From: Candidatus Omnitrophota bacterium
Lineage (GTDB): Bacteria; Omnitrophota; Gorgyraeia; Zapsychrales; JANLHA01
Length of the DNA stretch: 64,000 nt
Assembly (NCBI GenBank): GCA_022711395.1
Contig: JAKLFA010000005.1
Coordinates: 44,410 to 108,409, forward strand
Direction of reading: 5' to 3'
Positions 1 through 59,935 of the stretch are shown here, piece by piece. The notes under the pieces are model-generated. The model saw only the letters and a list, made by a program, of their open reading frames with translations. It searched no databases and had not been told where the DNA came from. Every line of letters begins with the position of its first letter. Within the stretch, counting starts at the first letter, position 1. The translations under genes and the position numbers were made by a program.

Positions 1-1
1 C

Positions 2-3000
2 GGCGATCATGCTCCGGTCCGCCTTCCGATGCGCGGCCGTTTGAAGGTCACAGGGTTCAGGGCGCAAGACCCTCAGGCCTTTGATGCCCGATGGGGCTTG
101 TCCCTGGGCTGGCATCCGGCGTTTTTTAATTATGAACTCGCGTTTTTCTCAGGGGAGGAAAATGAAAACAATGCCAACAGGATCCACTTGAGCATTTCTG
201 ACCGCGGTATTGTTTGCTATGTCTGCATGAGAGGCATTCAGGTCAGCCGGTATAGTCAGGGCTTTGGGCGCATCCTGGTTGAATATGCCTTTTCACACGC
301 GCGGGCCCTTTCACAGAGGCTGGGCCTCAATCCGCGCTGGGCCATGATGTATTATACCGTCGGTCCTTTGGAAGAAACGGATGTCGGCGAGCCGCATGAG
401 AAATTTTTCACGAAGATGGGCTTTATCAATTCGAAGGCTGTTTCTGATCCTGAGGGCGATGCCGGGAAGCTTCTTTCGCAGTATCCGGAAGGATGGCCGA
501 TGAATGGCCGCGGTCACTGGTTCAAAAAGCTGGAAACATTTAACGCTCCCGTGGAGGAGACTAACGCCTCGGTCCTTCTGGCGGAAGAGTGGGCGGGCGG
601 CCTTGAAAAGGAGGACCGGTCATCGGATCAGGCTGTCAGCCGGTTTGAATATTACGGTTTGCGGGATGAGGTGAACTTGCGCGAACAGGTTCCGGAGCCG
701 AACCCGCTGTATGTCGGTGAAGAAAATATTATTGTGTCCCGCGGGATCGATGGCCGCCGATTCTTGTTCACTGAAAACATCTTGAGCTGCATGGGCCTTG
801 CCTTCAGGGCGCATGCCGGCGGAGAGGTCTGGTATGGACTGGGCCATATCGGTTACGCCACCGAAGCGCGGCTGAACCGGTTCATTCGTAAATTGGAATT
901 GTTGAAAGAGCGCGTTCTTCATCCATCTCGGATCGGTCCGGTCCGGGATCTTGAGATCGTTGTTTATTTTTCCCGGGATTATTCAGAAAAGCGCAACCAG
1001 GCCGTGGAATTGTTCCTGGCGGATCTCATGGCGTCGTATCCATCCGTGATGGTCAAAAACGTTGCCGGGCAGGGGACCGGGATCCCGGTTTACATGGTCA
1101 TCCGGCAGGGCGATTGGACGGTCGGGTATGGGCACAGAGGGGTCAGCGAGAAGGTCCTCGCCGGATGGGAGGCGAAGAAGGAATCAATCCATGTATTATC
1201 GGTGTTTCCGGAAGCATTCAGGAAATGGAACCTTCCAGGGGCCACGCCGGCCGAGGCTTTAACCATGGCAGCCGGCAGTGTTGCCGTTGAAGACCCTATA
1301 CACACTGTGAACGCGGCGGTTTTGGGAAACATGACCGGATACGCTCAGAAATATTTCGACCGGGCCCTTCCTGTCAAGAACCAGCAGGACGGTTATCCGT
1401 TGTCATTCGGTGTGATGTTTGGCCGTCTGATGGCGGTCCTGGCCCTTCCGTTGGCTTTAGCGGGGATCGCGTTCTTGGCTCCTTTGGTGAAGATCTCATC
1501 GCCGGGGCCAGTCTTTTTGGCGCAGCCCAGAGCCGGATATCAGGGCAGGATCTTTAATGTTTGGAAATTAAGAACGTTCACTGACATGCGCTACAGCCGG
1601 CACTTTAAGAGAACATGGTTGGGAGCTGTTTTGCGTCCCACGGGGTTGGATGAACTTCCGCAGCTCTTCTCTATTATAAGGGGCGATATGCAGTGGTTCG
1701 GCCCGCGGCCGCAGCTTCCGGGGATCATTGATGAAAGCTATGTTGAGGAGATCTTAACACAGACGTTGCCCGGGTATTTTTCTGCTGTCGGCCTGGACCG
1801 CCGCAAGAACCGTTGGGACACGATCTCTTTAGAGGAACGCAAGCGTCTTGAGCTTGAGCAGATTGACAGGAGGTCTTTGATAGCGAATACCCGTCTTTTG
1901 ACAGGGCTGATCATCTATACTGTTCCGTTCATGATCTTAGGCCGCAGGCCGTATCAGAACGCGAACGTTCCGGCGGGCGCCGCGGTCAATTCTTCCGTTT
2001 TGAACGGTGATACGGTTGAGAGGCTGATCGCTCATTTGACTGCTGATCCAAGCCAGGGACGGATGGACTATATTTCAACCATGAGCGAAGGTGTTTTCTG
2101 GAGCCTGGACCCGGTCGATGGATATTCTGACTTGAGAAGCGTCTCTCTTGATCTTGGGCCCAGCGGCAGAGTCCTGATACGGACGAACCGGACAGAAGGT
2201 GGGCTGTATTTGAACGCATCCTCCGAGCAGGAACAGCGCTTGAAAGAGATCTTTATCGCGCGGGCGGAGCTTGAGAGGACGCGTCAGCAGAAGGTCTCCA
2301 GGTTCGTGGATCTGATCAGCGGGTTTGACCGCGCTCGAAGGGAATCAATGGCTCCGGCCGGCCGTGTGAATTCTGCGGTCCTGAGCCAAGGGCCCGTAGA
2401 GAACGATGCGGAAAGAAAAGATAAAGAGGGCCCTGGTTTCAATGTCAACCGCCGGGGATTTTTGAAGTCGCTGGCCGTCCTTTGCGGCGGGTTGGCGGTT
2501 AACGGCGGCGGGGCGGTCGGAGTGATCGCGCAGGTGACAAAGGCCCGGCTGCCGTCACAGATCGCATCGCTGGTCGGATATTATCTGAATTCCGGGCACG
2601 CCAGCATCGTTAATGAGGTGCAAAGCCGGCTCGCTCTTTTAAAAGACATCATGTTCTCAACGCGCCAGGCGCCGGTGTTCACCCATGCGGACAAGGTTCA
2701 GTCCATCGACGCGCAGGTTTTTTATATGCTGTTGCACGTCTTCAACTGTTCAAAGAAAGAGGCGGACGCTTCGGCTCTTCCTGATCAGGACCAGGTTAGG
2801 AGTTTGAAAGAATTTTTCGCCTCTTCCAACGAAGATGAATTCCGTGAGCATGTTAAGGCCTTCGCCCAGCACAGGCCGATCATTGACTGGTATATCCGCC
2901 GGTCTAACCTGAGCTTGGAACCGGAGGAGCTGATGACCGAGAGAGGAACGGCGCATTTTATCGTCATGCAGGACGCCTACAATCACATTTCATCCCAGCT

Positions 3001-6000
3001 TGATCAGGAGGGATATATCCTGCAAAATCTAGAGGGCATTTCTTCAGAGCTTGAACGGTTCGCGCGATCCTGGGGGACCAGAACGCTTTTGCAGGGTTTG
3101 CGTGACCCGAAAAGCCTGATATTCAATAGAGGTTTTGTGTTAAGAAAACAGATCTACGATATTGATATGAGAACTCTCGGCATGGACCCGGAATCTCCGA
3201 AGGCCAAAGAGTTGCGCGAGCGCCGTAAGGCCCTGCAGGAACAGTTGGACCTGGATGACCGGATGTATGCGCCGGACGACGCCGAGGACATGGTCTTTGA
3301 TCAATTCGCGCTGATGCGCTGGGACGATGACGGCGGGGCAGTAGTGGCCGAGCGTGGCGAAACCAACGCCGCTGTTTTAGGGAGCGGGAATTCATCATCT
3401 GGGCAGCGGCGACAGGAATTCCCGGCCATCGCCTATGAATATCTTGCGCCGCAGGTCACGATGCGGAAGAATGTCGAGTCAGGCTGGTATGATGTTCATT
3501 CGGTCAAGCCCGGGCCCAAAGGGATCGATCATCTTTCCAGGGCGGAGGTCGTGTATCTGGAAAAACGTGTTTCACAGATGATGCGCCAGTATTTGCCCAA
3601 CGCTCCGCCGGTCATTATCATACAGCCGCTGCGTTCCTGCGTCAGCAGTATCACCGACGAAGGCCTGCAGCTTCACTGGCAGCTTCTCAGCCAGGATGAC
3701 CGGTTTGTCCAGGGAGTCCTCCAGTATCATGAGCGTTTCCACCTTAAACCATTTTTCTACGATGACCCGCAGGCTTTCATCAAGACCCTTGAAGAATTAA
3801 GCCGTCCGCATAACCGCGCCATTGTTGAGGCCATGGTGCATGTTTTCAAGAATTCTCAGGCCAGTGAGATCGTCTTAAAACCAGCCCGGATCTTAAACGC
3901 CTTCGAAGCGATCCTTGACGGCGAAAGCATTCATGAGGTGATCGAGGCCATGGCGCGAACGGGCGGGTTTCACGGCGAAGAGGTCTGTGGAGACGCCGAG
4001 GATTTTGACTGGAGCGGCGTGGAGTGGACAACGCTGTCGCCGGGCTTCGGGCACGCGCAGGAGGCGATGGAGGCCCGCGCTGCGGATCAGCGAAGGGTCT
4101 TTTTAGAAGAAGTCCAAAAGGAGATCGAACTTCTTCAGGGGCAAAAAAGAGCCGCGCCGCGGAAGGTCCTGGCTTTGCTTCGCCTGGTGGCCGCTGTCGT
4201 CGGGCTGCATCAGGAATTGCACAAGGCGATCGCTAACATGGACACGCTGGGAATTGTGTTTTCCGGCGCGTCGGATGCTTTAAAGGCCGAAGCCCTTTCT
4301 GTGATCGCCCGGGCCAGGGAATACGCCTTTGTTCCGCGGTTGATCATTCTGGAAGTTTATGACGAGGTTTTGGAAGAGGAGATCCAGTGCGCGGACGCGG
4401 CCCGCATGACACGGCTTTTGAACACGAAGAGTCAGGCCCGCAAGGAGGCAAAGGACCTGCGCGAGGAGATGAGGGCCCGCATGACCCAAGCGGTCATTGA
4501 CTTTGTCCGCGTTGCTGTCAGAGGCATGAATTTGAAGGTCAACAAGAGCTTCTTTAGGGCGCTTGAGGTCTTTGAAATGTATTTGGGCAAAGGGCACTCG
4601 ATCGGGTATTTCCAATACGATGATGAGGCTTTGGAAGGGCTGTTCAAAAAGACGGCTCAGATGTTCGCTCTTCCGGCGGTCTTGCGGCTGGTCATCGAGA
4701 CCGCAGCCACCCTTCGCCCCGTCTCCGAAGGCGTTTATTACCGTTTGTTCCCGGACCTGATCTTAGACGAGCAAGAGGCCTGGCGCCTGTTCGGGGAGAG
4801 TTCCAGGTCCTCCGGGGACACGAATTCAGCGGTGCTTTCGGCGGCCCAAGATGTGGAACTCAAGCTCTTTATGCATTTAAGACCCAGAACCGTGGTCGCG
4901 GCTTTGGCCTCTTTGGTCGATCGCCATATGGGGATCCAGCTTTCTTTCAGGAACGGAGCGCGAAAGAATTTTACGGTCATTGAAAAGCAGGGGTCGCTTG
5001 AAACTTTAGGCAAATGTCTGAACAAGAGGGTCACGCTGAGGGCCCGGGGCCTTGACCATGAAATAACGGGCGCGGATCTGAATGAAGCCATCACGATGGC
5101 GGCTGAATGGCTATCGAGCGATCATTTTGATCCTGATTTTCACCGGGATGACGGAGTGCTCAAGGCGGAATTTGAATACTATCAGCGCCTGTTACGGGAG
5201 AAGGCGGTGCGCTTCAATGGGAGACGGGGGCTCCATTTCTCCGAGGATATGTATGTGACGGATCCGATCCTGGGGAACGCATTGCCGGTCATGGCGTCTT
5301 TAGCGTCCGGACTCGAGCAGGAATTCGGGCTCGAAACATTCATTGAAGACAGGGTCGATCTGCGGAGGGTGACCCTTAGAAAGATTGATTCCAACGGGTA
5401 TAGACGCGTTTTTCTCCGTCGGAATTCAAGGCAGCGGATCCTTTACAACGCTCCTTTGGGATTGCGTTATAGACCTGATCTTTTGGCCATTCATGAATGC
5501 GTTCAAGCTTTCGTGTTCCACGCCCAGGACCATTTTGGAAAAGATCTGGTCGAAAAAGCGGCAGACTTCTGGGCCCGGAACGATCAAGGGGAAGGAAGTT
5601 CGGTCCAACCGGCCTTAAGAAAAGTTGTTGAACGTCTTTCTCAACAGGGCAACGCCGCTGTTCTTGCTGCGGGCGAATCCGGAGATTGGATGCTCAGCCG
5701 CCGTCAGATGCTGAAAGGCCTTGTTTTGGCCGGAATGGCGCTGCCGTTTATGACCAGCCGCGCTTACGCTGATGAACCGACGGTGGAGGAGGTGTTGACC
5801 GAACTTTTGAGCACGCAGACCGCGCATGGTTTGATCAAGAGCTTTAAAGGCACGAGCGACACGTATATGCAAAATCAGGCGGTCACTTACGACCAGGCCG
5901 TAGCCGGGATCGCTGCTCTTGCGGCTGGACGGACGGTGGAGGCGGTCAGGATCTTTAATTTCTTCTATAATCAGCACAACGGTGGAGACCCCGCCTGGAA

Positions 6001-9000
6001 CGGTTTTGTGAACATGTACGATGCCGTCCGCGGGGTCAAGGGAAATGAGCTCACGATCCACGTGGGCCCGAATGTCTGGATGGGAATGTTCTGCCTTCAT
6101 CTGTATATGGCGACACGCGACGCGCGGGCGATCACGCTTGCGCAGGCGTTGCTGAATTGGGCGATGGGACTTAACCATCGCGACGGAGCTGTTGCCCTCG
6201 GGCCGGTCCCCAATAACAACATTTATTCAACGGAACACAACTTAGATTATTTTGTCTTCCTGAAAGGGATACAGCCGTTATTGTCTGAAGCGCAGGCGGC
6301 GCTTGTCCAGGCGGAAATGGACGGGGTCGCAACATGGCTGAGCACCAGGGCCTATGATCGGGCGAGGATGCTTTTCAAACGCGGCGCTTATGAGAACCCT
6401 GTTGTTTACGCGACGGACACTTCAAGCTTCGCGCTCCTTTTGGGGTCGCAGGTCCTGGAAAACTGGAACATCGTCCGGCCGACGTTCATCAGCCGCTCGG
6501 AGACGGCTTACCGCGTGGGCACGCGAGGGTTTGATGTCGCCAGCGCCGAGAACGCCAATTGGGTCCCGCGGGCGCGCTACGTTTTCAGGGAGTTCACTCT
6601 TCAGATGGCGCTCGGATTTTTGGTGATGGCCGACGATGAACATGACCGTGGAAATTTTGCCCTGGAGAAGACGTATCGCGATAAGGCGCAGTTGTATGCC
6701 TCTCAATCCGGGACCGGCGGAGATTATCAATATTGCGAACAGACGGGCGTGCAGCTCTTTTATGATATTCCCAGTTGGAAGACGATCAACGGCCAGTCGG
6801 CCTCGGTCATGGCCTGGAAAATATTGGCATTGCTCGGTTTTAATCCGTTCGGATTTGTTCCAAAAGTCAGGCTGTTCACCCGCAGGATCGCCGCAACCGG
6901 CGACATGGAGTTGACCCTTCGCAAGGAAAGCATGGCGCCTCTTGCTGTTGAGATTTTGTATTCCGATGACGTGGCTGATCCGGCGAGCTGGAAGACCGCC
7001 GCCAATATCGAAATGGACGCTTTGACGGCTGTCTGGGTGGATAACGGCTCTCAGACCAGTCTGCATCCATCCGCAAGCCCCAGACGATTCTATAAAGTTT
7101 CCGCAAGCGCGGCAACGAACGCTGCGATCCTGCCTTCAAAACTGGTCCCGGGACAAACTCCGGGCTGGGTCACGAAATTTAAGGAATCTCTTCCTGAAGG
7201 ATTCGTTGAGGCCGCTGAATCCCAAGAGGGCGAGCAGGGCGCGGGCAAGATCCAGGCGCTGTCGATCTGCCAGGATTCTCCCGAGGTCGGGAACATTCTG
7301 GTAGAGCTCTACGGACAACTTCTTGATAACCGCATGTCGCCGGACGTCCGCAACCGATCGACCTATGACGCGTGGATGAAGATCAAGGAACGGATCGATG
7401 AGTGGGAGGCGACGCTGGCAGTGTGGTTTACGTATGTGGCGTTCCAGACCGTGCTGAACATTGAACAAAAGAAATTAGAACAAAAGAAAGCTCCGGCGCC
7501 TTCTGTTAAGGCATCCGCAGAAGTCGCTACAGAACCATCTTCAAACGGGCGGGAAGAAGGGGCGTCTGCCCGCGAAGATGAGCGTTACTTGGGGATTGTT
7601 ATCGAGGTCGACGGGTTCGGTGAGGTCACTCTCACTGAACGCATCGCCCGGAACAGCCGGACGCTTCTTTTTAAGACCAATCATCCCGGTCTTTTGATCA
7701 AGCTGTTTGATCTGAACCACACGAGCGACGCCGGAAAGCTGGATCCGGTCGTCGTTCAGAACTTTGAGCTGGAACGCAATAATTTCATTGAGATCGCCAA
7801 GATCGAAGAATTAAGGCCGCACATTCCTCAATATTACCAGAGCGGGATCCTGGAAGAGCGGAAATACGCTTTTATCGCTATGGAATACATTGACGGTGTC
7901 GATCTTTACAGCTGGAGGGAAAAAGTTCTTGCCGAGTCCGGAAGGCAGAGTTTAAGCGATGTGGAATTCTGGCAGATGATGTCTCAAGCTCTGCTCATCT
8001 TGAGGATCTTCCATAAGCATGACCTGATCTTCTCCGATTATAAATTGGAGAACATTTTAAGGCTTTCAAACGGGTCTTTGAAATTTGTGGACCTGGGCAG
8101 CATCTTTTTGATCCACGGGGCGGTCAAGCCGCAGGATTTTCCGTATTCGGCGACCATGGAGGCTTCAGAGGTTTTTGAGAACGCCGTGACATTGAAGAAC
8201 GGAAAACCGCTGCCGAAAATCTCCGATATCTTTTCCGTGGGCGTGAGCCTGTTCGAGTTTGCCACCGGGCAGCATCGTTTGACCCTGAGCCGTGAGTATG
8301 CGGATATGCTTTTGTCCCATTTGCGGGTCATCAACCCGCGCATGTCCGAGATCCGGCTGTATTTTAATTATTATCCTCACCTGAAAGGAAAACTTCCGAC
8401 GCTGGAAGACCAGCTAAAAGAGGGATATGTCTTTTTCGCTGATTTCTGGCACATGCTGCACCAGGTCCTCAAATACACCCATGACGGTTATGAGGATATG
8501 GCGCAGGATGAAAAAGACCGCGCGTTGCTGGCCTCCGGAATCGATTTTATCCGCGAGCAGCTGGGTGACCTGGCCTGGGCGGCTGAGCCGATCGCCCTGG
8601 CGACGGCGTTGCGGCGCATCCGCGCCCAAAGCATCCATGACCTGCTTTTAAGCTTTCACAGCCCGTTAAGCGCGGAGGTCATTGACGATCTTCATCAGAA
8701 TAACTGCTTTGTGGATTGCGTGGAGTCACAGTTCGGACGGCAGGATTTCACTCAACAGCTCAATACCTGGAACGTTCGGCTCAACCCGCACACCCGGCAT
8801 TGGACGGTCCAGGCGCCGGCCGCTTTCGCGCGTGACAGGGAGGAAGCTGTTTCGCTGTTTTTGAAACAGACATTCACGGATGAGGAAGGCCATCGGTATT
8901 ACCACATCACAAGTATGGAAGAGGCTGATGAATTTCCGAACGGTGAAAAATTGACCCTGGCGCATTTACAAGACGATCCTTACGCCTGGCTGGGCGCTGA

Positions 9001-12000
9001 CAATGCCGAAGGGGCCGGCAAACACAGGACGCGCGATGAATGGATCGCATTTTTAAAAGGCCTTGCCGCGAATGTCCCGGCCGGAGAGAGAAGGTCCATG
9101 AGCGAAGTGGCCCGGCATTCGGCGGGGGCGGTCACGCGCGAGAGCATCAAAGCCGCCTTGAAGTATCACGGCATTTCTTATGAGGAGGCGGGGCTAGAGA
9201 GCGGACGGACAAGGGATGGCTGGGTGACATATTTGACGGCACTGGTTCCCAAAATCCCTAAAGGCGAAGAAAGAACATGGTCCAACATAGTGAAATATTC
9301 GCAAGGTGCCGTTACGGCAGCGCAGATCAAGGGGGCCATACGGCGGCACGGGATCTCCCGAGCAGAGGTCGGATTGAGCCGGAAGTGGGAAGACAGACAG
9401 AAGACCGTTGAATATCTCAAAGGCCTTGTTGCCAAGATCCACGCCGATAAAGAAAAGACCGTTGCTGAAATGGCCAGGCAGTCGGGCGGAGATGTTTCCA
9501 GGGAAACGATCAAATTTGTGATGAGGGACCATCATATTACACGGGAAGAAATCGGTCTGAAAGGGGAGTGGGATGACCGGGAGGCTTGCGTGAAGATGGT
9601 CCGTGAAGCGGTGGCTAATATTCCAGAAGGAGAGCCCAAAACGGTTGCCAATACGGCCCGGCACTCAGGAGGCAAGTTCGACAGGCATCAGTTGAGGACC
9701 AATATTTTAAAGAAACACAAGCTGTCTGCGCAGGAGCTTGGCATCACGGAGAAAAAGCGTTCCGGAAAAAATGAAAAGCGCGGCCGTGACAAGACCATCG
9801 AATTGATCAAGCAGGCCATGGCCTTGATACCGTCCGGCGAGGCCAAGACGGCGGAGAACGCTGCGAAGTACTCAGAGCGTTGGACAGTCTCATCTTTGCG
9901 TTCGGTGATGAGCCGTAACGCGATCGTATCCGCGGACGTCGGGTTTGATCTGAAACCCAAGGGACGCAAAAAGTCTTCTCAGGCGAAAGCGGTGAAACCG
10001 CGCCCGCGGCCACAGGCAAAGAAACGCGCGGCCAAACGCAGATCAGGGAAAATGAGGGTGTCCATGCCGCGAAGCCGTGAAGAGGCGATCGCGTTTTTGA
10101 ACGAGGCGGCCGGACGGGTCCCGGAGCATTTGGCAAGAACACCGCACATTGTGGCTGATTTTTCTTGCGGCAAATTGACCGCCGAGAAGATCCGGAGCAT
10201 CGCCAAGAAATGGGGGATCACGGGCAATGATGTCCCCATTGCCCTGCTTTTAAAGGTGAAGATCGTTCCGCAGAAAGAAGCCCGTTCAGAACAGCACGAC
10301 CAAGATGACGCGGCCGGCCATGAACAGACCAATAGCGCGGTCATTGACCCCCGCGGAGGGAAAGATTTCGGCGATCAGAAAGAGGTCTTTTGCTGTCGTT
10401 TTGAGAAAGCGCGGGACGCTGATGAAGACGCCTGGAGAGAATCACGCGTCTTGAAACGTCTTTCGATCATCAGCCAGATCGGCTTAGAGTGGAGAGCGCT
10501 TAAGGTCGGGGAACCGGCGCAGAAATGGATCAATGAATTAAGAGAGTATCTGCTTTATAGGATTTGGACAAAGATCCAGAGGGAACATAAGGGTGACTTC
10601 TTTTTCCCGCAGAACATGGTTGATGTAAACCACGGATTAAGCCAGCCGTTTGTTTTTGTGGTTGATGAGCTTTTGAAGAACGCCTTTGATGCTTGCGCAG
10701 CAGCGGAACGCGACGGGGACATCGAACTCGCGGTATCTTTCTCGGACGGACTTTTTGAAATGGCTGTTTCAGATCAAGGGATCGGGGTGCGCAAAGGATT
10801 TTCGGATGAAGAAGGTTTTATTTATCTTGAGTCTTTGATCGACGCTCAGAAACGACAGGCGCTGCGGCTGGAGTCCAGCGACAAGGCCGGGCTGTTATGG
10901 GCCCAGTATTTAACGGTGATGCGGGGAGGAAAGATCTTTGTTGAGTCTCCCGGCCGTAATGGCTACAGGACAACGGTCGGCATCGCCTTGCCGGCTGAGG
11001 CCGTGGTCCGCAAAGGCCTTTCAAAATTCGGACCGCAGACCAATGGGGCGGTCCTTTCGGCATACGAAGAGGAGGCCGTCCTAAAGAGAACGCAGGCTGT
11101 CGGGCAGAAAACGGATGATATAGCGACGAGGTTCCTTCAAAGTCTGGCCGTAAGACATGGCCTTCGTCAGGATCTTCCGAATGAGGAGATCATAGGCCGC
11201 CTTTATTCCGGTTCCATTTTAACGTTAGCTGAAAAAATGCTTTTGGAACGCTATGGTCAGGCCTTGAAATTGGTCGCTCCGGGCTCATCGATCGTGGATG
11301 CTGAATCGTTTTGGCTGGAGAAATTCCGCAAACGGTCTCCGGAACAAAAAGAGGATTGGGAAATATCCGGAATTATTATGGATCTTGCCGTGATGACCAA
11401 AAAACATCTTGTAGGGTTTTTGCCTGTCCTTGAAAGAACCCTTCCTCCGGAACAATGGTGGTGGGTTGAGGACAGTCTGCAGTTGCGCGTGATCCGGTTC
11501 GCGGACCAGGTAGATTTCGCCAAGGCTCTTTCGATGGAAAATTCCAGGCAGATCCCCTTTACGTCGGAAGAAGAAAATGAAGAATTGATGGTGTTTAATT
11601 TCATCCTGCATGATGTGTTTTTTGAGTCCGGATATTTTGGGTTAGCGGCGTTTAAGGACGGGGAGCCGGCAGGGATATATGGGGTTTCGATCGTAAGTGA
11701 AATGAAGGAAATCTTTGGTCGGGGATTATACGTTGTTCCATGGGCCAGAGGCAGGGACCCGAAAGTCGGATGGGTTCTATTGACGAGGATGTCCGAGCTT
11801 TTTGCTCGTAACGGATATAAATATTTTCATATTCCTGTGGCCAATCGTCCCTCAGCGCAGGGATTCTTCGAGAAGGTTTCAGATAATTCAGGCGAATTTC
11901 CTTTCTATGCGCAGACCAGGCGAAGTGATGAGGGACGCATTCAGCAGCTCACTGTCCATTTGAAGGAACGGTTTTTGCCAGTGAGGATACAGCTTCCGCT

Positions 12001-45000: not shown

Positions 45001-48000
45001 AGAAAAATTTGAACAGGGCCTCGAGGCATTTTCCAAAGAACTGCGGGATGTTCTTGAACCGAACCATGATGAAGCCATCGGCGAGGAAATCGCGAAGAAA
45101 GAATCTTTCCTGTGGGATTCGCTGGCCGGGCCGTGGGCTCAAACTTTAAGCCTTGAACTTGATCCGGTTTTGGCGGAAGTCCAGGGATTGCGGCAGCAGC
45201 TTTCCGATCCATCTCAGATAGAAGCCTCTTTGGAAACAGCGCTCCAATTGCGCTCAAGGATAAAGGAAGGCGATGTCGATGGGGCCATGACCGCGGCGCA
45301 ACGGTTGAGAGCGCAGGCGAAGGATGAAAATAAAACCAGGATCGGGAACATTCTGCGCGAGTTCGCCGTTTGGGCTGTCGGCCGGATTGAAGAGAGGCTT
45401 AAGGCTCATGATGATCAGCGGGTTGAGGAGATAACGAGACGGAGCCGCGCGGCGCTGCAGGGGTTTCCGGTTTTAGATGAATTCAATCAGCTTTTGAAAT
45501 CAGCCCGTCGACAACTGATCGAATCAGACGGCAATGCTGTTCAACCCGTCGCGCAGGATGAAAATGCGCGCGCGGCGCAGCAACTGCTGCAGGAATTCAA
45601 AGACCATTTTCATGCCGGCCGCGACCGCCTGATCCGGGAATTCCTGGAGCTTGCCGCGCAGGGCCGTGGCCTTGAATTTGAGGACCGGGAAAAGCTTCAC
45701 CGGTATTTTCTTCATCATGGCGGCGGACTGAATTATCGGGCCAAAGAATTGCTTGAGTCGGTCGAGAGACGCAAAAAGAAGGGGACCAACGCGAGCGTGT
45801 GCGGCGAGGATGCTTCCCGTCAAGAGGAAGTTCTTAAACATGACATGGAATATGCCAAGAGCTGCGGGGTTCCGCTGGATTTTCTTCAGAGCGCCAGGGA
45901 TTTTATTTTTACGAATTATGTGAGGATCGCGTGGGAGATCTTGAAGCATCTTAAGGCCGGATATCAGGGACAGGATCAGCTGTCTTCCGATTATCGCGAG
46001 GCATTTGTGCAGCTTTTCCGGCATCACGGGATCCGTTCGATCCTGGATATCGGTTTTGAATTCGGGGAATTCCTGCATATGTTCTATCCGGTCTGCCGGG
46101 ACGCCGGTGTCAGGCTGTTCGGCCTTGAAATGGAAGAGCGCCGAAGACTGGTTGTCCGGGCGGAAGAGGCTGAATTTGTTTTTGGTGACGCGGAACAATT
46201 GAACGAACATCTGCCTGGGCGGACGTTCGATCTCATTGTTGCCTCCGGCGTCTGCGGGTTCATACAGTTCCATGCCAAGACTGTTGCGCCAGCATGGATG
46301 CCTAAAAATCATCGCAGTTTACGCGAGGCCTATGAGAGCAGCATGACGATCGTTCAGCAGGGAGTCGGGGCGCTCAGCGAGCATCCTCGGGCCGCCATGT
46401 TCGTGGCGTCATTCAGCTCATTTCATCTGCTGGACGCTTCTGAACTGGAGCGAAAGGGAGTGCGGGTCTTAGTATGGAACACGGAAGAAATGCGGGTCCG
46501 CAAAGAAACGAATTCGGGCCAGGCGATCGAAAGCTCTCAGCAATATGCTTATGACAGGTATCAGGCCCGACGGATATTCAGCATTTGGAATCATGGTTCC
46601 AATGTCGCGGTGTTCGCAAAAAATAATAACGGGAGCTCTGACCCCAAGACCAACGCGAGCGTTTTGGACCCGCCAGTGATGGCTCATTTAAATGGATGGA
46701 CGCCTATCGAACGATTGAACTTTGACAGTTATTTGACGTGGGTCTTTAAGGCCGCGAAGAGAATTCCCTGGAGCCGGGGCCGGTCAACACGAGGGGTGCT
46801 TACGGTCTATTGGCTGGGTGGGGTCAACGGTAAAACAGACGTCCCTCTTGCGACATATCAGGGGCGCAGGGCCCATTTTGAGCGCCAGCTGAAAAATCTG
46901 AAAAAAGCAGCTTCGATAGCTGAACTTCGAAAGGTCACAGGATTATTGCTTGAGCACGGCTTTGTGCCCGAGCCGGAATTCGGATGGTATGCCATTCAGG
47001 TTCCCGTAGGGATCACGCTTGAAAAATGGGCGCAAAGAAATCAGGGGGATATTATGCCGGCGCGTGTTTGGCCGCTGGTCCGCGCGGTCTTTAAAGCGAT
47101 GATGGTGATGGAGCGGCATGGTTTGATCACACAGGACTTTTCGGATAGGAACGTGATTATCAACGGGACGGAAAAGCGCCCGATCGTTCACCTGCCCGAT
47201 CTTGGCAGCGTGGTTTCCCATGACGAAAAGGATTTAACGGATGAATTGATCGGAGTGACCCAGGCCTGGGCCCCGCCGGAGGTCAAGTCCTACAGCCCGG
47301 TTGCTGATCCGAGGGTCCATGTGTATCAGATGGGCAAGTTTCTCTACTATTTAGCGCTTGGCGTGTCTCGTCACGCTGAGTTGGCTTTGAAGGACACAAG
47401 TCCGCAACAGATCCATTTTATGCTCGGAAAAAAGTCCTGGGCGCCGCTTATTCCTGTTCTGCTTAAGGCCCTGGCTGTGTCGCCGGAGGATCGTTACGCG
47501 AGCGTGGCGGAGCTTTATGGGGATGTCAGAGGCCTGTTTAGCGGAGCGCCGGAATATTGGCGGCCTGTCCGCTCTCAGGAAATCGAGATCCCCATCAGGA
47601 TCATTTATGATCAGAGACAACGTGGCAACGCTTCTCAAGGAATGAATTCCGCGGTCCTCGAAGGACGGGCAGGGGAAGAAAAAGGTTCGGCTGTCCGCCG
47701 GTCGCCGGGTGAAGTTCTTCATTTGGAGGTCCCTTCCGGGAAGTGCCCTCCAGTGTTAAGGGATTATATTTCCGTTCACAACCGGATCTTGGAATTGAAG
47801 GAGGCCATTGCGCTGGGATTTTTGGAAAAGACGATCGCTCAAATCGAAAGTGGCGATGATCAGGGCCTTTTGGCCAAGTGGCGGGCGATGGAGGCCGGCC
47901 TGCGCAAGGTCTTGACGGGCCGGGGGTATGGCCTGAAGATCTTATCGGAAGATCACCCGATCACTCAGGGCCGCGCCGGTTATGTCATTGGGCGCACCAT

Positions 48001-51000
48001 CTGTTTTTCTAAAGCGGAAAGAGTGGCGGATATTTTGATGTATCTGGGGCATGAGAGCGTGCACCTTGTCAACTGGGAGGAATCCGAGGCGCGCAAGATG
48101 GATGTGCGTTTGATCATCTGGATGAAATCTCTCGTCGATGCGTTGCGCCAGAGTCCGGAGGATGCGTTTAAGCAGGCCGCGGACGCGCTGGAAAAGATCG
48201 CCCTTGATTTTGAGCTCGATATCCACACCGCGCGGCTGCAGCTTGAAGAACAGGGGACGGAATTTTTGAAGGAGCATGGGCTAGGGATGATCACGCAAAC
48301 GTCCGGGTATTTAACGGCAGTGGCTCAGTCCGCGAGCGGGGTGATCGAATCCTTGCCTGATCTGACGGCGGGATTCTCCATGCGCTTGAAGGACGTTGCG
48401 CCTTGCGCAGCGGCTGCATTTGTGCTGGAGTCTTTGTATGAGTGGAATATTTCAATTCTAAGAGAGAGCCCTTCTCCGGCGGAAGCGACCGCTGTCAGTG
48501 AGGCGACCCGGTCTTTGGCCGAGGTCTTCAGTCCTGATAAGAGATCATTATCTGTCGCTTACGCCAGAATGAACCAAGGTTACGCGAAAGGTGAGACTTC
48601 CTCGGATCAGGTCCTGGCTGAGTTGGGAGCTTTATTGGAAAAGATGGATTGTGTTCTGGAAGGGGTCCGTGTGAAGGACGAATTGACGGCCCTTCTCAAG
48701 GAAGTCCCCGGCCTGACAGAAGAGGACCTCGATATTTTGCGGAGCATGAGCGAGTACACCCTTCAACTGCAAGCGGTGCGGGCTGATACGGATAATCCGA
48801 CGAGACTTTCGTGGATCAAACAGATATTCGCCGACCATTCTTCTTTGAGCCGGCTGATGATCTTGTATTTTCGGACCAAATTTGATCCTGAATTTCAGGG
48901 GGGCCGGGAGGCTCGGGAAAAACAGCTTCAGGAGATCCGAAAGAATTTTGTGGAGGAAATGTCGGTCTCATTCCGGGGGAATAATTTTATTCACGAACGG
49001 GAAGTGATCGCGATTGCCTGGGAACTTTTGGACGCGACGGTAAAAACGGATTTTTTTGTGGCGGACCGCATATCCTTAGGGCTCAGGCTTGACCCCAAGA
49101 AGATGAGTATTTTTGAACGGAATAAAAAAGATTTTCCGGATGTTCCCTACGCGGTGATCTGGGTGCATGTGCCCTATGGCGGGTACGGTGTTCATGTGAG
49201 GTTTGAGAATGTTGCCCGGGGCGGCTTGCGCGAAATGGTGGCTGCCCGGACCCAGTTGCGGAATAAACTGCTGAATGAATGTTACAGCCTGGCTTACACA
49301 CAGAATTTTAAGAATTTGATCCCCGAGGGCGGGTCCAAGGGGGTCTTTATCCCGGCGGAGAATGTGAACCCGGTGGCTGTGGGGATCGGATATGTGGATT
49401 CATTGATCCATATGATGCAGGATCGTCCGGAAATCATCTGCGGGGGATCCATCGCTGTTGTTGATCCTTTGGAATTGGGGCCGGATGAAGGGACAGGGCC
49501 TCTTTCCACTTTGGCGACGGTCCGTGGCTGGCAAAAGGGCTTGAAGGAATGGCGGCTTTTGATGACCGGAAAGCTCGCCGTCCTGGGCGGATGCCCGCAC
49601 ATGGACAATAATGTCAGCGGTCCAGCTGTTGTTATTTCTCCGGATGGCGGGTTTTTGTCCCAGGTTGGCACTAACCGCGTGACTTCTCAGGGGGTGATGA
49701 AGAATCTAGACGAATCCTTGAAGTGGGTTGGTATAGATCCCCGGAAGCAGGGCTTGCGTCTTGGGCTTACCGGTGGGACCAATGGTGATGTGGGGAGCGG
49801 AGACCTGATCATAGCGATCGAGCGTTACGGAGAAAAAGCCAAGATCATTTATATCAATGATCATACGGCTGTGATCTATGATGAGGCCGGCATTGACCAG
49901 CAGGAGCTTTTACGATTGGTTCATGGGGGGAAAGTTCTCAGCGAGTTTGACCCTCAAAAGCTAAGATCCTCGCAGGCATTTTTTGTATTGACGCCCAAAG
50001 AATCCCAGATGGTGACGCTCACAGCCGAGCAGATCAAAAATATGAACCGGCAGGCTTTCGCCACGCTTGCCCAACGTTATGGGCGCGAAAATGTGCAATT
50101 GGTTGATTTTGACATCGCGGTCAGTTCAGAGTCAGAGCGGATATCGATCGTTCCGGCGATCCTTCGGGACAACATGATCTTTTTGGGCCGGGTCGACGCC
50201 CTGGTTCCGGGAGGGGGACTTAAGGACACGATCCGGCATGAAGATATGGATGGCCGGGTCAAGAACGTGGACATGCTTCTGGATGAGAAAGGACAGACGG
50301 TCACAAAAATCGTGTGTTATGGCGCCAATGTTTTTGCCACCAGGCCCGCCAATGACCGGATGGAAGAGATGGGGATCCTGGTCGTCCCGGACGAAAAGGC
50401 CAACAGCGTTGGGGTTTCGGTGTCGTCCCGCCGGGAAGTCGATGGGAACCTTCTGTTCAAACTGGACGAGCTTAAGAAGGCCGACGCGGAGTTCATGCCG
50501 GATCTTCTGGCAAAACTTTTGGATGAGTCCGTTCAGAAGCATTGGCTTTTGATGCGGGAGCGGTCCGCCCGCCCGGGAGAGCGCGTGGTCACGCAGATCT
50601 CACCGGACGTTTCACGGGAGATCATCCGCATCAAGAATCTTCTCATCGCGGCGGATGTCCTTAAAAACCATCCGGATCTGGCTCGGGCCTATTTGAGGAA
50701 GTATTACCCGCGGGCCGTTGAGCTGGAGCGGGTTTATGCGAGGATCCCGCCGGAGCGGCTGAAGAGCACGCTGGCCATAACGGTCGCGATGGATGTGGTT
50801 TTAAATGCCGGCATCAATTATGTGCGCCAGACAGCGTTGACGACAGGACGCACGGATGTTGAGATCGTTCTGGCGTATGCCGTTAAATCTGTGGAGAGCG
50901 GCCACACTGAGAAGAAGAAAAAGGTTTATGCCTTAAATCATGAACTTCCGCTGAGCGAACAGATCGGGCAGCTCAGCCGGATCGAGGGAGATCAGCAAGA

Positions 51001-54000
51001 GCGGGTCTTGAATGCGCTCATGAAGCCGGAAGCCTCTTCTTCGCCCAAAAATTGGGCGGTCGAAGAAGACTTTGTTGATCTTATTCGGAGGATCGTAAAT
51101 TTCACGCCGGTCCAGGAAATGGAAGCCCCTTCAAATCAGGATGAACAGGAGTACTGCTTTGAAGTCCGAAGAACGATCTTAACAACACCGTGGCGTTGCC
51201 CAATTTATGCGGCCGCTCTGGCTTTGATCGCGCAGATCATTGTGGGTCGGCTGAAAAAAGAATTTGGCAATGGCCGGCGGTGGCAGGCCCGTGTTGTGCA
51301 TGGCGTCGCAGAAGGGTATGCCGGACCGCTTTCGGATATTGATGTTTATGTGGACATTTCACAAGAGGATGTTCCTGTGGCTGAGATCAAGCGAAGGGCG
51401 GTTGAGCTCGATCAGGAAATTCTCAATCAATTACAAAAAGCCGGTCTTTTTTCGGGGTCACGAAATTTTATTGATATAAAAGTCAATCGGCCATTGACCG
51501 AGAGAGAAAAACTTTATCACACAGACTTGAAAACTATGGTTTCAACGATCCTGAGTGATTGGTGTGGTCATTGCGCCGATCCGGCTTTGAATCGACTGCT
51601 TTGCCGTTACAAGGATAAGTTCCTGCAGGATGAAAAAGAGAGCGGCGACCCGCAACACATAAATTCAGCGGTGTTACGGAAGCACGAGGGGAGGCAGCCG
51701 CAAAAAGTGGCTCTGTTGAGTGTAAATGATTTCGGGAAAAAAGATCGGTCGTCCGTTGAAGCCATGGCCAGGATTTTAGAGGAAGGCGGAAAGATTGTTG
51801 TCGGGGAACGCAACATGGCCCGTTGGCCGCGCGCCGTGCGCGCTGTTTTGGGAGACGCGAGTGTTTTTGATTTCGATTTCAATCCGGCGGGGGTATCGGA
51901 TGATACGCACGCAAGAGAATTGTTCCACTCGCTGGTCCGTGAAGGGTATCTTGTTTTTGTTGAAGGAGGCTATGTCTGGGCCAAAACACCCGACGAGGAA
52001 GAGTTGTCTTCTTTGGGATTTCAAACGCGGGAGATCGATGAGGTCTTCCGAGTCTGGCGGACGACCGAACCCGGACGGGCGGTGACGGCTGTTTTGGATA
52101 AGCTTGAAACGGAATCCTCCATCTATGCCGTATTGTGCGGCGGAAAACTGGACAGCTGCCTGTTTGTGGTGTTTTTAAAGATATTGCACTATGCCTCTCG
52201 GCGCACAAAAGACCTTCGCGTGATCATTAATGAGGAGGCGGTGAGCTTTTATCCGGGAAAAAGCGTTGAACAAACTTTAAAGGAGCGTTACTTTCCCGCC
52301 GTCAGGCGTTTGGGAATAGAGCCGTCTATCGAATATTTTGATGAAGAATCCACGCAAGGGCCATCAGGACAAAGGCCTGCCGTGAGCTTCAGGATCTATC
52401 CTTCAACATCAGCGTTTCGGATGGATGTTCTTTCTGGCGGGGATCGGTCTTCCGTTCCGCAACGCGCGACACGGCTTGGCTGCTGGGCCTTTGTTCCGTC
52501 GCTTATTTTCGCTACATCAGCTCAGGCCGCGCCTCATCCTGCGCTGACAGGAGGGGGGGACGGATTGCCGTTCTTGATCAATCTGGCCGGGTTTGTCTTT
52601 TTTGTCGCCTGGGTCATGTCGGCCTGGAATAAAAGGTTTTTGTACGTTTGGTGGCATAAGGATTTCTTTTTAACAGTCGGATGGGGGCTGACGACGGTGT
52701 TTGGCCTGTTCCCGCTTTTTTGGGGCACGATTCCCGATGAGCAAGGCAGGTATGTTTCCTGGGCGTGCGCGACGGCGTCTCTTTTCTTGAATCTTGTGTT
52801 AAGGGTGGCCACAGGCTGGATGGAGTATAGGGAAGGGAGGAGGCATGAAGAGGAACGACAAATAAAGACGGGAGAGCAGAAAAAAGTTTTCAAAGATCCT
52901 GATACTTCGAAAGACTCGAAGGAAGGTAAAACCAACGCCGCGGTGCTGAGAACGGATGAGGCAACGGGCAGCAGTCAACCCTTGGAGCAGCCGGCGCCTT
53001 TATATATGGGAAGCGACCAGAAGACCCGGAGTTCTCTCTTCAGGGTCGGGGCGCCCGTGTGCGCAAACTGCGAGATCTTTTTTGTGCGCGCTCTCCGCAA
53101 CCGGGCGCTTCAAAGAGAAATCGTCTGCGATGGAGAGACGCGCCGCAATGGGAGCCGGTATTCGAGGAAAGTGTTTTTGCATCGCCAGGAGGGAGACCTT
53201 TCTGCCGGAAGAGAGATTGAGTTTGCTGTTTTACCGTCCATAAACAGGCTTGGATATTATGGAAAGCCCCTCGGCCTTCTTTTGACGCCGATTATGATCA
53301 ATGGACGGTCTTTGCATGGGATGATCGCACTTAAGGAAAGGCTGTTTGGGAGATGGGTCCTGCGCCGGCATTCGGCGCTTTTACGCCTGCTGGAGCTCAA
53401 TGGTTTCGGGCCTCAGATATGGGACAGGATATTCGCTGATGAGGCTTTGACTTACGAGGAAATTGAAAAACTCCAGGGACTTAAAAATTTTCTGCTCGGT
53501 TCTCCGCTGCGGATCCAGGTCCGGCAAGGTATCGATATTAAAAATCCTGAGGAATTTGCGGAGTTGTGCTACAAGGGGACCGATCATCCGTTTTCGTATA
53601 TTGATGTTATTCCTGCGCAGGAAGATTTAAAGAGAAACCCTTCTTTGGCGGGAGAGGAGGGGCCTGATCGTCGCAACTCGTCCATTTTACCGGAGAGAGG
53701 GGCAGAGGCTGTGGCTGACACAGACGCAGTGCAGGAGGCTGATGAGGAGTCGGGCTGGTCTGTCGTCCGGGAACTTTTAACCAGCCGCTTATATCTGAAG
53801 AAGACGATCCTGGAGAATGTCCCTGTTCCGCCGCCTGCCGTGCAGATCAATGCCAGCGATCTTTGTAACAATCATTGCCTTCAGTGCATCGGCGCGGTGC
53901 TGGACCGGGAGAAAGGTTGTCCTGCAGAACTGGAAGCGGCTGCGAAGGTCATGCAGTCCGATGAGATCGACATGCTCATCAACGATCTTGAAGCGTATAA

Positions 54001-55744: not shown

Positions 55745-55869
55745 CGGACTGGTGTTTTCATAAAATAAGTTCAGACCAAATAAAAACCGTATAAATTTTG
55801 GATTTTATGTATAATAAACAAGCCTAAAGTGGTTTTATCGGAAAATATTTAGAAGAATGAGAGGAAAAA
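55745..55869 (+). promoter_or_regulatory. AT-rich intergenic region with a -10-like TATAAT (55810-55815; TG immediately 5', extended-10-like) and Shine-Dalgarno GAGAGGA (55857-55863) ahead of the HMGL-like gene
   Basis: The region is far more AT-rich than the flanking coding DNA. No convincing -35 at 17-bp spacing (TTGGAT sits 6 bp upstream), so the promoter call is tentative. Confidence 0.35.
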
Positions 55870-56820: not shown

Positions 56821-56887
56821 ACAAGACACCAGGACACTAAGGCACTAGACACTAAGGGTTTCAGTGTCGTAGTGTCTTAGTGTCATA
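56821..56887. repeat. intergenic GACAC/CACTAG inverted-repeat element (GGACACTAAGGCACTAGACACTAAGG ... GTGTCTTAGTGTC)
   Basis: 'gacactaag' at about 56834-56842 and about 56849-56857 pairs with 'cttagtgtc' at about 56874-56882; a 'gacact/agtgtc' hairpin surrounds 'aagggtttc'. Related units recur at 57535-57580 and 57655-57678. Confidence 0.45.
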
Positions 56888-57526: not shown

Positions 57527-57534
57527 AACTTCTG

Positions 57535-59797: not shown

Positions 59798-59873
59798 ATG
59801 GTTTTCTTTGTTTTCTACGGGGCCGCCCGTGGGCGTTCATTATATCGAGTTTAGAATGAAATGGCAAATTAAA

Positions 59874-59902
59874 GAGCAGGGGCGTTATGCCCTGTCCTTG
59901 AG
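59874..59902 (-). terminator. weak hairpin (CAGGGGC gttat GCCCTG) downstream of the outer-membrane protein gene
   Basis: Imperfect 6-bp GC stem. On the minus strand it is followed by 'ctctttaattt'. Weak candidate. Confidence 0.2.
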
Positions 59903-59935
59903 AGGCCTGGAAGAAGAACTTTCGGAAGAAAGATA

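Follow-up and report, generated by a model that had tools for sequence, protein, structure and literature searches.

A single reading frame of 18,580 codons raises the question of whether it specifies one enormous protein or many ordinary ones. The frame lies in contig JAKLFA010000005.1 of a Candidatus Omnitrophota bacterium (GenBank assembly GCA_022711395.1), of which we analyzed positions 44,410 to 108,409 of the forward strand, a stretch of 64,000 nucleotides (nt) referred to here as the window. An earlier note on this DNA, made from the letters alone, had described an open reading frame (ORF) built from about 46 unrelated enzyme-sized modules. Here, we report that the encoded protein is punctuated by 47 copies of a hexapeptide missing from that note. 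We interpret the giant ORF as a cellular polyprotein gene whose product would be processed at these 47 conserved junctions by site-specific proteolysis, a reading that we hold to be probable, if only by a small measure.

An uninterrupted frame of 18,580 codons

A stop scan of the window found no TAA, TAG, or TGA in frame +2 between positions 2 and 55741:

2..55744, + strand, giant ORF, 18,580 codons plus a TAG stop at 55742-55744, open at the 5' window edge

Counted from the first ATG, at position 29, the frame has 18,571 codons. The remaining five frames hold 451 to 1091 stops each, which excludes chance as the source of the giant ORF. G+C content is level along the window (0.51 to 0.56), and each 3-kb block of the ORF shows the same coding signature (G+C at first, second, and third codon positions of ~0.58, ~0.40, and ~0.61). 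The stop scan and this uniform signature bear out the statement of the earlier note that a frame of 18,571 codons could not be chance. An alternative genetic code was set aside as irrelevant, all three stop codons being missing in frame. Because the frame is open at the 5' edge, the true gene is longer than its part in the window.

Second assemblies cover about half of the giant ORF. Six metagenome contigs from independent assemblies (JGI, ENA, and Logan) match window positions 45870 to 64000 at 99.8 to 100% identity, and in each of them the giant ORF reaches the contig end; the 44-kb JGI contig that holds locus L001 begins at about window position 36216. Four protein fragments of further contigs match amino acids (aa) 82-2202, 5139-6504, 6501-7413, and 7719-8535 at ≥99.9% identity. 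The earlier note had named collapsed frameshifts or stops as the finding that would undo the single frame, and neither occurs in the six contigs or the four protein fragments. A word-indexed protein search with aa 1-3443 returned as its sole match a 100%-identical self fragment annotated "Candidatus Omnitrophota bacterium," and a 47-mer from the window start had no exact match among genome or metagenome contigs.

The metagenome source, and the location of window positions 1-244 and some interior stretches outside second-assembly support, might raise the suspicion of an assembly that is chimeric or collapsed or of a cluster of decaying pseudogenes posing as one ORF. However, the absence of stops over 18,580 codons, the uniform coding signature, the frameshift-free matches in other assemblies, and relatives with ORFs that fill 20-kb loci all argue against an artifact, which we judge exceedingly improbable.

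Long antisense open frames (348 to 605 aa) lie opposite the first 10 kb, at 1057-2871(-), 5066-6334(-), 4165-5298(-), and 9166-10209(-). No evidence for genes was seen in them, and they are assumed to be shadow ORFs of a codon-biased gene.

A hexapeptide at every module border

The giant protein contains 47 copies of a hexapeptide with the consensus [T/V]-N-[A/S]-[A/S]-V-L. Residue counts by position are G/x-[T24, V10]-N47-[A24, S21]-[A31, S16]-V42-L42, with Asn invariant at 47/47 sites, and the strict core N[AS][AS]VL occurs 35 times, versus 0.10 expected. On a position-specific scoring matrix (PSSM) built from the sites, the 47 copies score 14.3 to 24.9 and every other position scores ≤7.3; because of this gap, the sites form a discrete class, defined here by a score of ≥14.3. 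Neither the other five frames nor the neighboring genes contain the hexapeptide. All junctions are on the + strand:

J1, 560..577, +, TNASVL
J2, 1307..1324, +, VNAAVL
J3, 1985..2002, +, VNSSVL
J4, 2366..2383, +, VNSAVL, then a Tat signal
J5, 3362..3379, +, TNAAVL
J6, 4820..4837, +, TNSAVL
J7, 5648..5665, +, GNAAVL, then a Tat-type signal, SRRQMLKG
J8, 7115..7132, +, TNAAIL
J9, 10328..10345, +, TNSAVI
J10, 11039..11056, +, TNGAVL
J11, 12029..12046, +, VNSAVL
J12, 12593..12610, +, TNSAVL
J13, 13985..14002, +, VNSAVL
J14, 14582..14599, +, TNGAVL
J15, 16196..16213, +, TNSSVL
J16, 16751..16768, +, TNAAVL
J17, 17411..17428, +, TNASVL
J18, 18326..18343, +, TNASVL, then a Sec-type signal peptide
J19, 21359..21376, +, TNASVL
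J20, 21995..22012, +, SNASVL
J21, 22667..22684, +, ANSAVL
J22, 23285..23302, +, VNSAVL
J23, 23888..23905, +, ANAAVL, disordered in the AlphaFold2 (AF2) model
J24, 24980..24997, +, TNSSVL
J25, 25892..25909, +, VNSSVL
J26, 25982..25999, +, VNSAVL, 30 aa past J25
J27, 26828..26845, +, VNSAVL
J28, 30464..30481, +, TNASIL
J29, 30932..30949, +, MNASVL
J30, 31364..31381, +, RNSSVL
J31, 32210..32227, +, TNAAVT
J32, 32447..32464, +, SNAAVL
J33, 33920..33937, +, TNAAVL
J34, 35090..35107, +, TNAAVL
J35, 37712..37729, +, SNAAVL
J36, 38933..38950, +, VNSAVL
J37, 40292..40309, +, MNSSVL
J38, 41495..41512, +, TNAAVV
J39, 42143..42160, +, TNAAVT, then a Sec-type signal peptide
J40, 43421..43438, +, RNSACL
J41, 45785..45802, +, TNASVC
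J42, 46649..46666, +, TNASVL
J43, 47642..47659, +, MNSAVL
J44, 51659..51676, +, INSAVL
J45, 52931..52948, +, TNAAVL
J46, 53672..53689, +, RNSSIL
J47, 54860..54877, +, TNAAAL

The hexapeptides sit in polar disordered linkers at module borders. Pfam-matched intervals contain none of the 47 (chance, 2e-4), and the 15 residues on either side have a hydrophobic fraction of 0.21 to 0.23 versus 0.346 ± 0.018. In an AF2 model of module 23 (predicted template modeling score [pTM], 0.70), the core has a predicted local distance difference test (pLDDT) score of 76 to 97, and the initial motif and the 30 residues preceding the next motif are below 50. A sequence-specific motif stands at 47/47 junctions, as in a polyprotein. 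Reading the hexapeptide as an N-glycosylation sequon was rejected, since Ser occupies the +2 position in just 16/47 sites.

Two junction pairs are closely spaced, delimiting module 25 (25895-25984; 30 aa) and module 31 (32213-32449; 79 aa). These short modules would be small released peptides if the sites are cleaved; alternatively, they are remnants of lost modules. A motif-like NSAAI at aa 7743 (23228-23242), 20 aa 5' of J22, matched a loose regular expression and was set aside by its position, unscored; it may be a decayed junction copy.

Unrelated modules with the marks of whole proteins

The junctions divide the giant ORF into 48 units, the 47 complete ones having a median length of 304 aa (interquartile range, 218 to 440), as is typical of whole proteins. 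Matches to about 20 different Pfam families were found, with none dominating, and ~60% of the protein has no family match. Self-BLAST yielded just nine weak internal matches, so the protein is non-repetitive. Pfam identified Bac_transf, two Pkinase, HATPase_c, four GNAT, three S-adenosylmethionine (SAM)-methyltransferase, PALP, PPDK_N with a PEP-utilizers swivel, HIT, large NAD-GDH-like, Radical_SAM with SPASM, TPR (limited to a single module), and SMODS-associated NUDIX domains; the GT2 match was weak (E = 0.04). The HExxH motif occurs three times versus 0.6 expected. The modules recognized are as follows:

Module 2, 1310..1987, +, 226 aa, small monotopic phosphoglycosyl transferase, PglC-like, with N-terminal membrane helix; Bac_transf 2e-26
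Module 4, 2369..3364, +, 332 aa, Tat signal NRRGFLKS
Module 5, 3365..4822, +, 486 aa, unassigned fold, HERFH (HExxH) at aa 1243
Module 7, 5651..7117, +, 489 aa, Tat-type signal SRRQMLKG...AYA by sequence reading, then an unassigned domain
Module 8, 7118..10330, +, 1071 aa, Pkinase 5e-14; internal ~180-aa repeats, self-hit 3006-3413
Module 9, 10331..11041, +, 237 aa, GHKL ATPase, Pfam HATPase_c 5e-5
Module 10, 11042..12031, +, 330 aa, GNAT
Module 12, 12596..13987, +, 464 aa, GT2-like glycosyltransferase, weak Pfam match; 46% identity to a module of P0011
Module 13, 13988..14584, +, 199 aa, GNAT
Module 16, 16754..17413, +, 220 aa, GNAT, paralog of module 22
Module 19, 21362..21997, +, 212 aa, SAM methyltransferase
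Module 20, 21998..22669, +, 224 aa, GNAT-like family, widespread in multi-module proteins
Module 22, 23288..23890, +, 201 aa, GNAT
Module 23, 23891..24982, +, 364 aa, zincin-like fold; family motif HExx[D/H]...E, here HAVTD
Module 24, 24983..25894, +, 304 aa, SAM methyltransferase, PrmA-like
Module 30, 31367..32212, +, 282 aa, SMODS-associated NUDIX
Module 32, 32450..33922, +, 491 aa, TPR
Module 34, 35093..37714, +, 874 aa, PPDK-like ATP-grasp part and phosphohistidine swivel domain
Module 36, 38936..40294, +, 453 aa, pyridoxal phosphate (PLP) fold-II enzyme
Module 38, 41498..42145, +, 216 aa, HIT
Module 39, 42146..43423, +, 426 aa, signal peptide, ~4 transmembrane (TM) helices, HELTHVAQ zincin motif; protease candidate
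Module 41, 45788..46651, +, 288 aa, SAM methyltransferase, weak
Module 42, 46652..47644, +, 331 aa, protein kinase-like
Module 43, 47645..51661, +, 1339 aa, N-terminal HESVH (HExxH) region and large NAD-GDH-like enzyme; protease candidate
Module 46, 53675..54862, +, 396 aa, radical SAM and SPASM
Module 47, 54863..55741, +, 293 aa, last module, paralog of module 17, with hydrophobic C-terminal tail

Module 34 was rejected as a full PPDK, its alignment being limited to PPDK residues 250-510, and no PDB sequence matches were found for module 39 or the radical-SAM module. BLAST detected three paralogous module pairs within the protein, at 32 to 51% identity:

aa 5804-6029 versus 18287-18509, modules 17 and 47, 43% identity in an alignment that begins exactly at the junction motif
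aa 5573-5797 versus 7742-7968
aa 12830-12950 versus 17486-17606, a 3-TM bundle that closes modules 35 and 44 right before the junction

This inventory bears on most of what the earlier note had claimed. Module-wise family searches confirm distinct enzyme families, and Pfam with self-BLAST supports dissimilar enzyme-sized modules in place of repeats, although their number is 48 rather than about 46. Pfam agrees on the sugar-1-P transferase, the two kinase-like folds, the GHKL ATPase, the PLP fold-II enzyme, the PPDK-like swivel, the HIT, GDH-like, radical SAM-SPASM, and TPR domains, and the minimum of three SAM methyltransferases, and the HExxH of its proposed zincin occurs three times, above expectation. 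GNATs are present but count four by Pfam, not at least six, and the GT2 assignment rests on the weak match given above. The membrane anchors and internal signal peptides listed in the earlier note are found as TM helices and Tat and Sec signals. Its picture of an envelope/glycan cluster fused into one polypeptide holds for the content, with the reading shifted to a polyprotein that is probably cut apart. Its premise that known giant bacterial proteins are adhesins, RTX/Ig-like arrays, or nonribosomal peptide synthetase (NRPS)/polyketide synthase (PKS) lines fails, multi-enzyme giants of Omnitrophota having already been published. Repetitive-adhesin/RTX and NRPS/PKS readings of the present ORF were themselves rejected by self-BLAST and Pfam; carrier, condensation, adenylation, and ketosynthase domains had no Pfam match in any 1000-aa chunk or module.

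Several modules begin with export signals of their own. A twin-arginine translocation (Tat) signal lies 26 to 44 residues past the J4 Asn (TIGR01409, 18.3 bits versus a cutoff of 16.7), and a near-consensus Tat signal, SRRQMLKG...AYA, was read from the sequence past J7. J18 and J39 are each followed by a classic Sec signal peptide and several further junctions by signal-anchor helices, and the giant protein has ~15 to 20 strong hydrophobic helices. Tat signals function only at the free N terminus of a folded substrate. In addition, module 2 (226 aa) corresponds to a complete PglC (PDB chain, 205 aa), N-terminal helix included, and stand-alone homologs of module 19 (185 to 221 aa) align end to end. 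By module sizes, stand-alone homologs, and export signals, several complete proteins are present in one ORF. Between enzymes that need cytoplasmic cofactors (GNAT, GT2, methyltransferase, PLP, and HIT), the number of strong TM helices is odd, as in these examples:

aa 4042, TM helix between GNAT module 10 and GT2/GNAT modules 12-13
aa 8687, TM helix between methyltransferase module 24 and NUDIX module 30
aa 13485, TM helix between PLP module 36 and HIT module 38

Because odd counts place such enzymes on opposite sides of the membrane, an intact chain is topologically inconsistent. This matters for the view that the product is a single uncleaved membrane-anchored mega-enzyme in which the hexapeptide serves as a docking site (for instance, for the TPR module), a hinge, or a nascent-chain pause signal by which folding and membrane insertion during translation would be spaced. 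Published analyses do take such ORFs as single TM-anchored or secreted proteins; the hexapeptides are located in linkers, the internal signal-anchor segments are able to insert co-translationally, and no protease was matched here by Pfam or NCBIfam. However, an invariant Asn with five constrained positions over 47 copies, synonymous sites being randomized, is abnormal for linkers; the modules equal stand-alone proteins; and an uncleaved chain would leave Tat signals useless in its interior and cofactor-dependent cytoplasmic enzymes on either side of the membrane. West-Roberts et al. likewise call some localizations "highly unlikely." We regard an uncleaved product as unlikely, though it is a contender to be taken seriously.

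In the polyprotein reading, by comparison, a single translation product of at least 18,580 aa would bear ~48 ordinary-sized proteins. The cargo would include kinases, methyltransferases, acetyltransferases, and enzymes for envelope and glycan, together with exported and membrane proteins, and each of the linkers that join them, polar and disordered, would carry the hexapeptide. A sequence-specific endopeptidase would recognize the hexapeptide and free the modules, which could then fold, enter the membrane, or be exported (by Tat or Sec) independently. The net effect would be co-expression of the whole gene set from one initiation event.

Selection on the junction as peptide or as nucleic acid

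Is the junction held constant as a peptide or as a nucleic acid? Among the hexapeptide codons, Asn is encoded by AAT 24 times and AAC 23 times, Val by GTC, GTT, and GTG 14 times each, Leu by codons spread across all six, and Ser by both TCN and AGY. Third codon positions carry 0.16 to 0.34 bit of information versus 1 to 2 bits at first and second positions. Synonymous-codon identity among the window copies is 0.372, versus 0.336 ± 0.012 from bulk usage (z = 3.0), and the sole codon position that deviates from bulk usage is the second small residue, with a preference for GCG. Since the hexapeptide codons track bulk usage, constraint in the window acts on the peptide rather than on DNA or RNA.

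Synonymous-codon identity was compared with bulk usage in the same way for the motif copies of four related loci (relatives are designated L for loci and P for proteins) whose own motifs are described below:

L016, synonymous identity 0.53 versus 0.42 expected, z = 2.3
L018, synonymous identity 0.65 versus 0.50 expected, z = 1.7
L014, synonymous identity 0.74 versus 0.44 expected, z = 6.4
L017, synonymous identity 0.82 versus 0.24 expected, z = 11.3

The values of the window, L016, and L018 stay near expectation, and those of L014 and L017 greatly exceed it. The ASSPA motif of L017 (930-6284; GCA_026387375.1) corresponds to a DNA core of 14 nt, GCCAGCTCGCCGGC, conserved in 7 copies. Two more ASSPA-motif copies lie in an upstream ORF, in another frame.

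These contrasts bear on the alternative that the junction is primarily a nucleic-acid element, such as a DNA cassette-assembly site or its footprint (from insertions that duplicate the junction or from site-specific recombination) or an RNA processing site, with translation incidental. DNA conservation in L014 and L017 speaks for it, as do the shuffling of modules among proteins, the start of duplicated modules 17 and 47 exactly at the motif, and the residual GCG preference in the window. In the window, L016, and L018, however, synonymous sites are at or near bulk usage, and the Ala/Ser alternation of the window hexapeptide runs through unrelated codons (GCN, TCN, and AGY). No tRNA, Rfam family, structured RNA, ribozyme, or intron was found within the window, no recombinase was seen in the window, and no integrase lies within the 8 kb downstream of the giant ORF; the pairing of DNA-conserved sites with an integrase that marks an integron-like array is lacking there. 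A primary nucleic-acid function is a rival for some lineages and does not fit the window; overall we consider it improbable, and it may coexist with a polyprotein as the origin of the junctions. We infer that junction copies arise by DNA copying along with modules and are later kept by peptide selection.

Separation during translation would require no protease, either through a 2A-like skip (StopGo) by the nascent hexapeptide or through internal initiation past the junctions. Peptide-level conservation at the C-terminal side of each upstream module is compatible with this, and other motif types contain a conserved Met (KPFAPD-M-AKE and KPGSSD-M-E), a potential start codon. In contrast, the hexapeptide is unlike D(V/I)ExNPGP, NPGP being absent, and the Met codons of the L016 motif have no preceding Shine-Dalgarno (SD) sequence. 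Internal initiation was rejected for the window, where neither SD-plus-start combinations (6 versus 7.0 ± 3.2 expected) nor Met codons are enriched past the junctions. We know of no case of StopGo working on bacterial ribosomes. Protease-free separation seems to us very improbable.

Shuffled modules and protein-specific border motifs in relatives

The polyprotein reading gains a comparative dimension from relatives of the modules. An exhaustive HMMER search with five modules (aa 7121-8320) retrieved 62 proteins, each aligned to one module, with alignment ends that fall near the module borders of the giant. Some of the 62 are short and stand-alone, and many are long proteins of multiple modules, in which the position of the matched one varies; P0011 has three modules in common with the window giant, in a different order. 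Omnitrophota metagenome-assembled genomes (MAGs) account for five of the seven related genome loci.

In unbiased recurrence scans of the relatives for dispersed motifs, for which shuffled controls gave none, several relatives proved to carry a motif of their own at module-like spacing:

KPFAPDMAKE, P0007 and P0008, 4-8 copies
KPGSSDME, P0011, 9 copies
FGCFIFLP, P0026 and L018, 6-7 copies
[AS]SSP[AVI], P0030, 31, 33, 34, 36, and 47, 3-7 copies, ≤0.1 expected
GWGPGTPHITQPPD, L014 (Ga0272441_10002348), 6 copies
GWGPGTPHITQPPD, P0004, 2 copies, read by eye

When window module borders were projected onto the targets, the target's own motif lay within 12 aa in 9/12 alignments, with a chance of ~5% per border; in P0011 the offsets were -3 and -4. 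Because homologous borders carry different target motifs, the border motif is a property of the host protein and is not inherited with the module, as expected if the reader of the motif is host specific. In L016, KPF[AS]PDM is present in the complete P0008 gene and also in its neighbor, a paralogous multi-module gene of 1,902 aa, which suggests that one reader acts on more than one gene of that genome.

The two adjacent paralogous genes of L016 (L016:4130-19426; Logan SRR29054607 contig), of 1,902 and 3,141 aa, have a common N-terminal signal-anchor module and lie among housekeeping genes (FtsK, RecA, AlaRS, and the his operon). A variable multi-enzyme family of 540 to 6,010 aa is found in P0005, P0007, P0008, P0010, P0011, P0016, P0017, P0025, P0029, P0038, and the C terminus of L014. 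Conserved in this family are the two ends, a signal-anchor module at the N terminus (...LNDISFA...TLSPxS+FxPI...) and a module of ~190 aa at the C terminus (...ALGTxWIxGY...YxxQxFA-end), between which the enzyme modules change; the C terminus of the window giant differs. In L018:1-19540 (GCA_016783385.1), the called 3,180-aa P0026 is part of a 6,513-aa ORF open across the 19.5-kb locus, so public protein sets under-report the lengths of such genes.

A more far-reaching idea is that in-frame cassette arrays replaced part of the operon organization of Omnitrophota, combining DNA-copied junction capture and shuffling, a multi-megadalton polyprotein, and a co-evolving genome-specific protease. It would explain why junctions are DNA-conserved in L014 and L017 and why duplicated modules begin at the motif. 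We consider it doubtful and offer it as speculation; if true, cells would have a counterpart to viral polyprotein expression, joined to integron-like gene capture.

Candidate proteases and the putative cleavage bond

Which enzyme might read the hexapeptide? Intact HExxH motifs occur in module 5 (HERFH), module 39 (HELTHVAQ, flanked by TM helices), and the N-terminal region of module 43 (HESVH), and peptidase-fold modules are common in long Omnitrophota relatives. The cognate protease may reside in module 5, 39, or 43, in the part of the ORF that precedes the window, or at another place in the genome. Judging from the motif, the favored bond would be N|[A/S] or [A/S]|[A/S], because each new N terminus would then be Ala, Ser, or Gly. 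The bacterial N-end rule counts such N termini as stabilizing, and Ser-Lys-dyad peptidases such as signal peptidase I and birnavirus VP4 follow a rule of small residues at -3 and -1, which [T/V]-x-[A/S]|[A/S] resembles; we treat both as leads rather than tests.

A different kind of candidate comes from L012 (JBAZLM010000005.1, an Omnitrophota MAG), where an ORF of at least 6,870 aa fills the 20.6-kb locus (1-20612) and contains six copies of a ~150-aa HExxH (zincin-type) mini-domain, periodic and at module-like spacing. The mini-domain reads ...YPLxVP...FGKNK...GRAPP...WxLVITTD...GNVAACxI..KTVYLHPYFF...QLEILYHELISH and occurs in single copy in each of P0014, P0020, P0021, P0023, L007, and L009. 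Such a unit might serve as a junction protease in cis. A by-eye likeness of this mini-domain to modules 5N, 43N, 39, 12N, and 23 was dropped (hhalign E > 0.1).

Several points weigh against a polyprotein cut at the hexapeptides. The role of the hexapeptide as a cleavage site is something we infer from sequence throughout, and because the gene begins 5' of the window, its architecture is seen here only in part. No curated peptidase family of Pfam or NCBIfam matches any module of the giant; the DUF4157/eCIS_core match of module 39 is sub-threshold, module 23 has a zincin-like fold with a degenerate active site that lacks the catalytic Glu, and an AF2 single-sequence model of the HESVH region of module 43 (pLDDT, 45.6) was unusable and not used. 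Internal signal-anchor sequences could in principle act co-translationally in the absence of cleavage. The DNA conservation of the L014 and L017 motif types makes a nucleic-acid-level role or origin possible. Moreover, recurrence scans found no short recurrent motif in many long relatives, and the border motifs differ so much in chemistry between proteins that many co-evolving specificities would be demanded.

Downstream neighborhood

The genes 3' of the giant ORF are ordinary chromosomal genes, encoding an HMGL-like aldolase, KDPG aldolase, a radical SAM enzyme, MnmA, an outer-membrane protein, MutL, and MutS; no type II secretion system (T2SS), pilus, or PilZ genes were found among them. The AT-rich spacer after the stop codon (55745-55869; 125 nt) holds a TATAAT-like box (tgtataataaac) and, 5' of the HMGL-like aldolase gene, an AGAGGA ribosome-binding site, so this gene probably has its own promoter.

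Relation to known systems and significance

The giant ORF is a further example of the giant multi-enzyme ORFs already described in Omnitrophota by West-Roberts et al. 2023 (10.1101/2023.11.21.568195) and Seymour et al. 2023 (PMC10066038). The preprint of Nielsen & Lui 2026 (10.64898/2026.06.07.730766) defines an Omnitrophota class of "multi-enzyme metabolic clusters" whose Pfam repertoire is that of the window giant, with methyltransferase, HATPase, GNAT, NUDIX, HIT, and radical SAM domains, and the Lipocone preprint (10.1101/2025.01.14.632903) describes the same kind of gigantic multi-enzyme protein with peptidase-like domains. The window giant belongs with them by its phylum, its length (at least 10,000 aa), its many and diverse Pfam families with neither a dominant one nor a repeat scaffold, its many TM helices and signal peptides, and its mostly unannotated, database-unique sequence. 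It differs from the published giants, which are interpreted as single anchored or secreted proteins, in that 47 hexapeptides delimit its modules, and from the many described there with PilZ or T2SS neighbors in that aldolases, MnmA, MutL, and MutS lie downstream. West-Roberts et al. leave cleavage an open question and state that missing cleavage-point information blocks analysis (10.1101/2023.11.21.568195), and published topology analyses place metabolic enzymes outside the cell, an implausible outcome. The searched text of the papers on Omnitrophota giant ORFs makes no mention of a junction motif or cleavage sites; the hexapeptide punctuation and its protein-specific counterparts in Omnitrophota appear to be undescribed so far.

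Outside Omnitrophota, the closest likeness is to viral polyproteins (picorna-, poty-, corona-, and birnaviruses), which also have one ORF, many proteins, a short junction peptide, and a lineage-specific motif. Whereas these yield fewer than 20 products, the window holds a cellular chromosome gene with ~48 predicted products, >2 MDa in total, and putative cleavage by a candidate protease. Engineered "fuse-and-cleave" nif polyproteins with tobacco etch virus (TEV) protease sites (PMC6130400) similarly join unrelated enzymes by a repeated site for coordinated expression; they are synthetic with a known protease, and the window giant is natural, about ten times larger, and predicted from sequence to be cleaved. 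With NRPS/PKS lines and giant adhesins (RTX, Ig-like, and that of Chlorobium chlorochromatii) it shares only a very long bacterial ORF; carrier, condensation, and ketosynthase domains and tandem repeats are absent, and its modules are unrelated enzymes.

In size, the giant genes of Omnitrophota rank with the largest so far known from any organism, and papers on them raise the question of whether the product works as a single chain or in pieces. A hexapeptide at every module border supplies candidate cleavage points that would resolve the topology paradox and makes the question of cleavage directly testable. If confirmed, polyprotein expression would deliver ~48 proteins in a cellular organism, the protein-specific motifs would imply co-evolution of protease and site, and megadalton ORFs could be annotated as sets of normal proteins.

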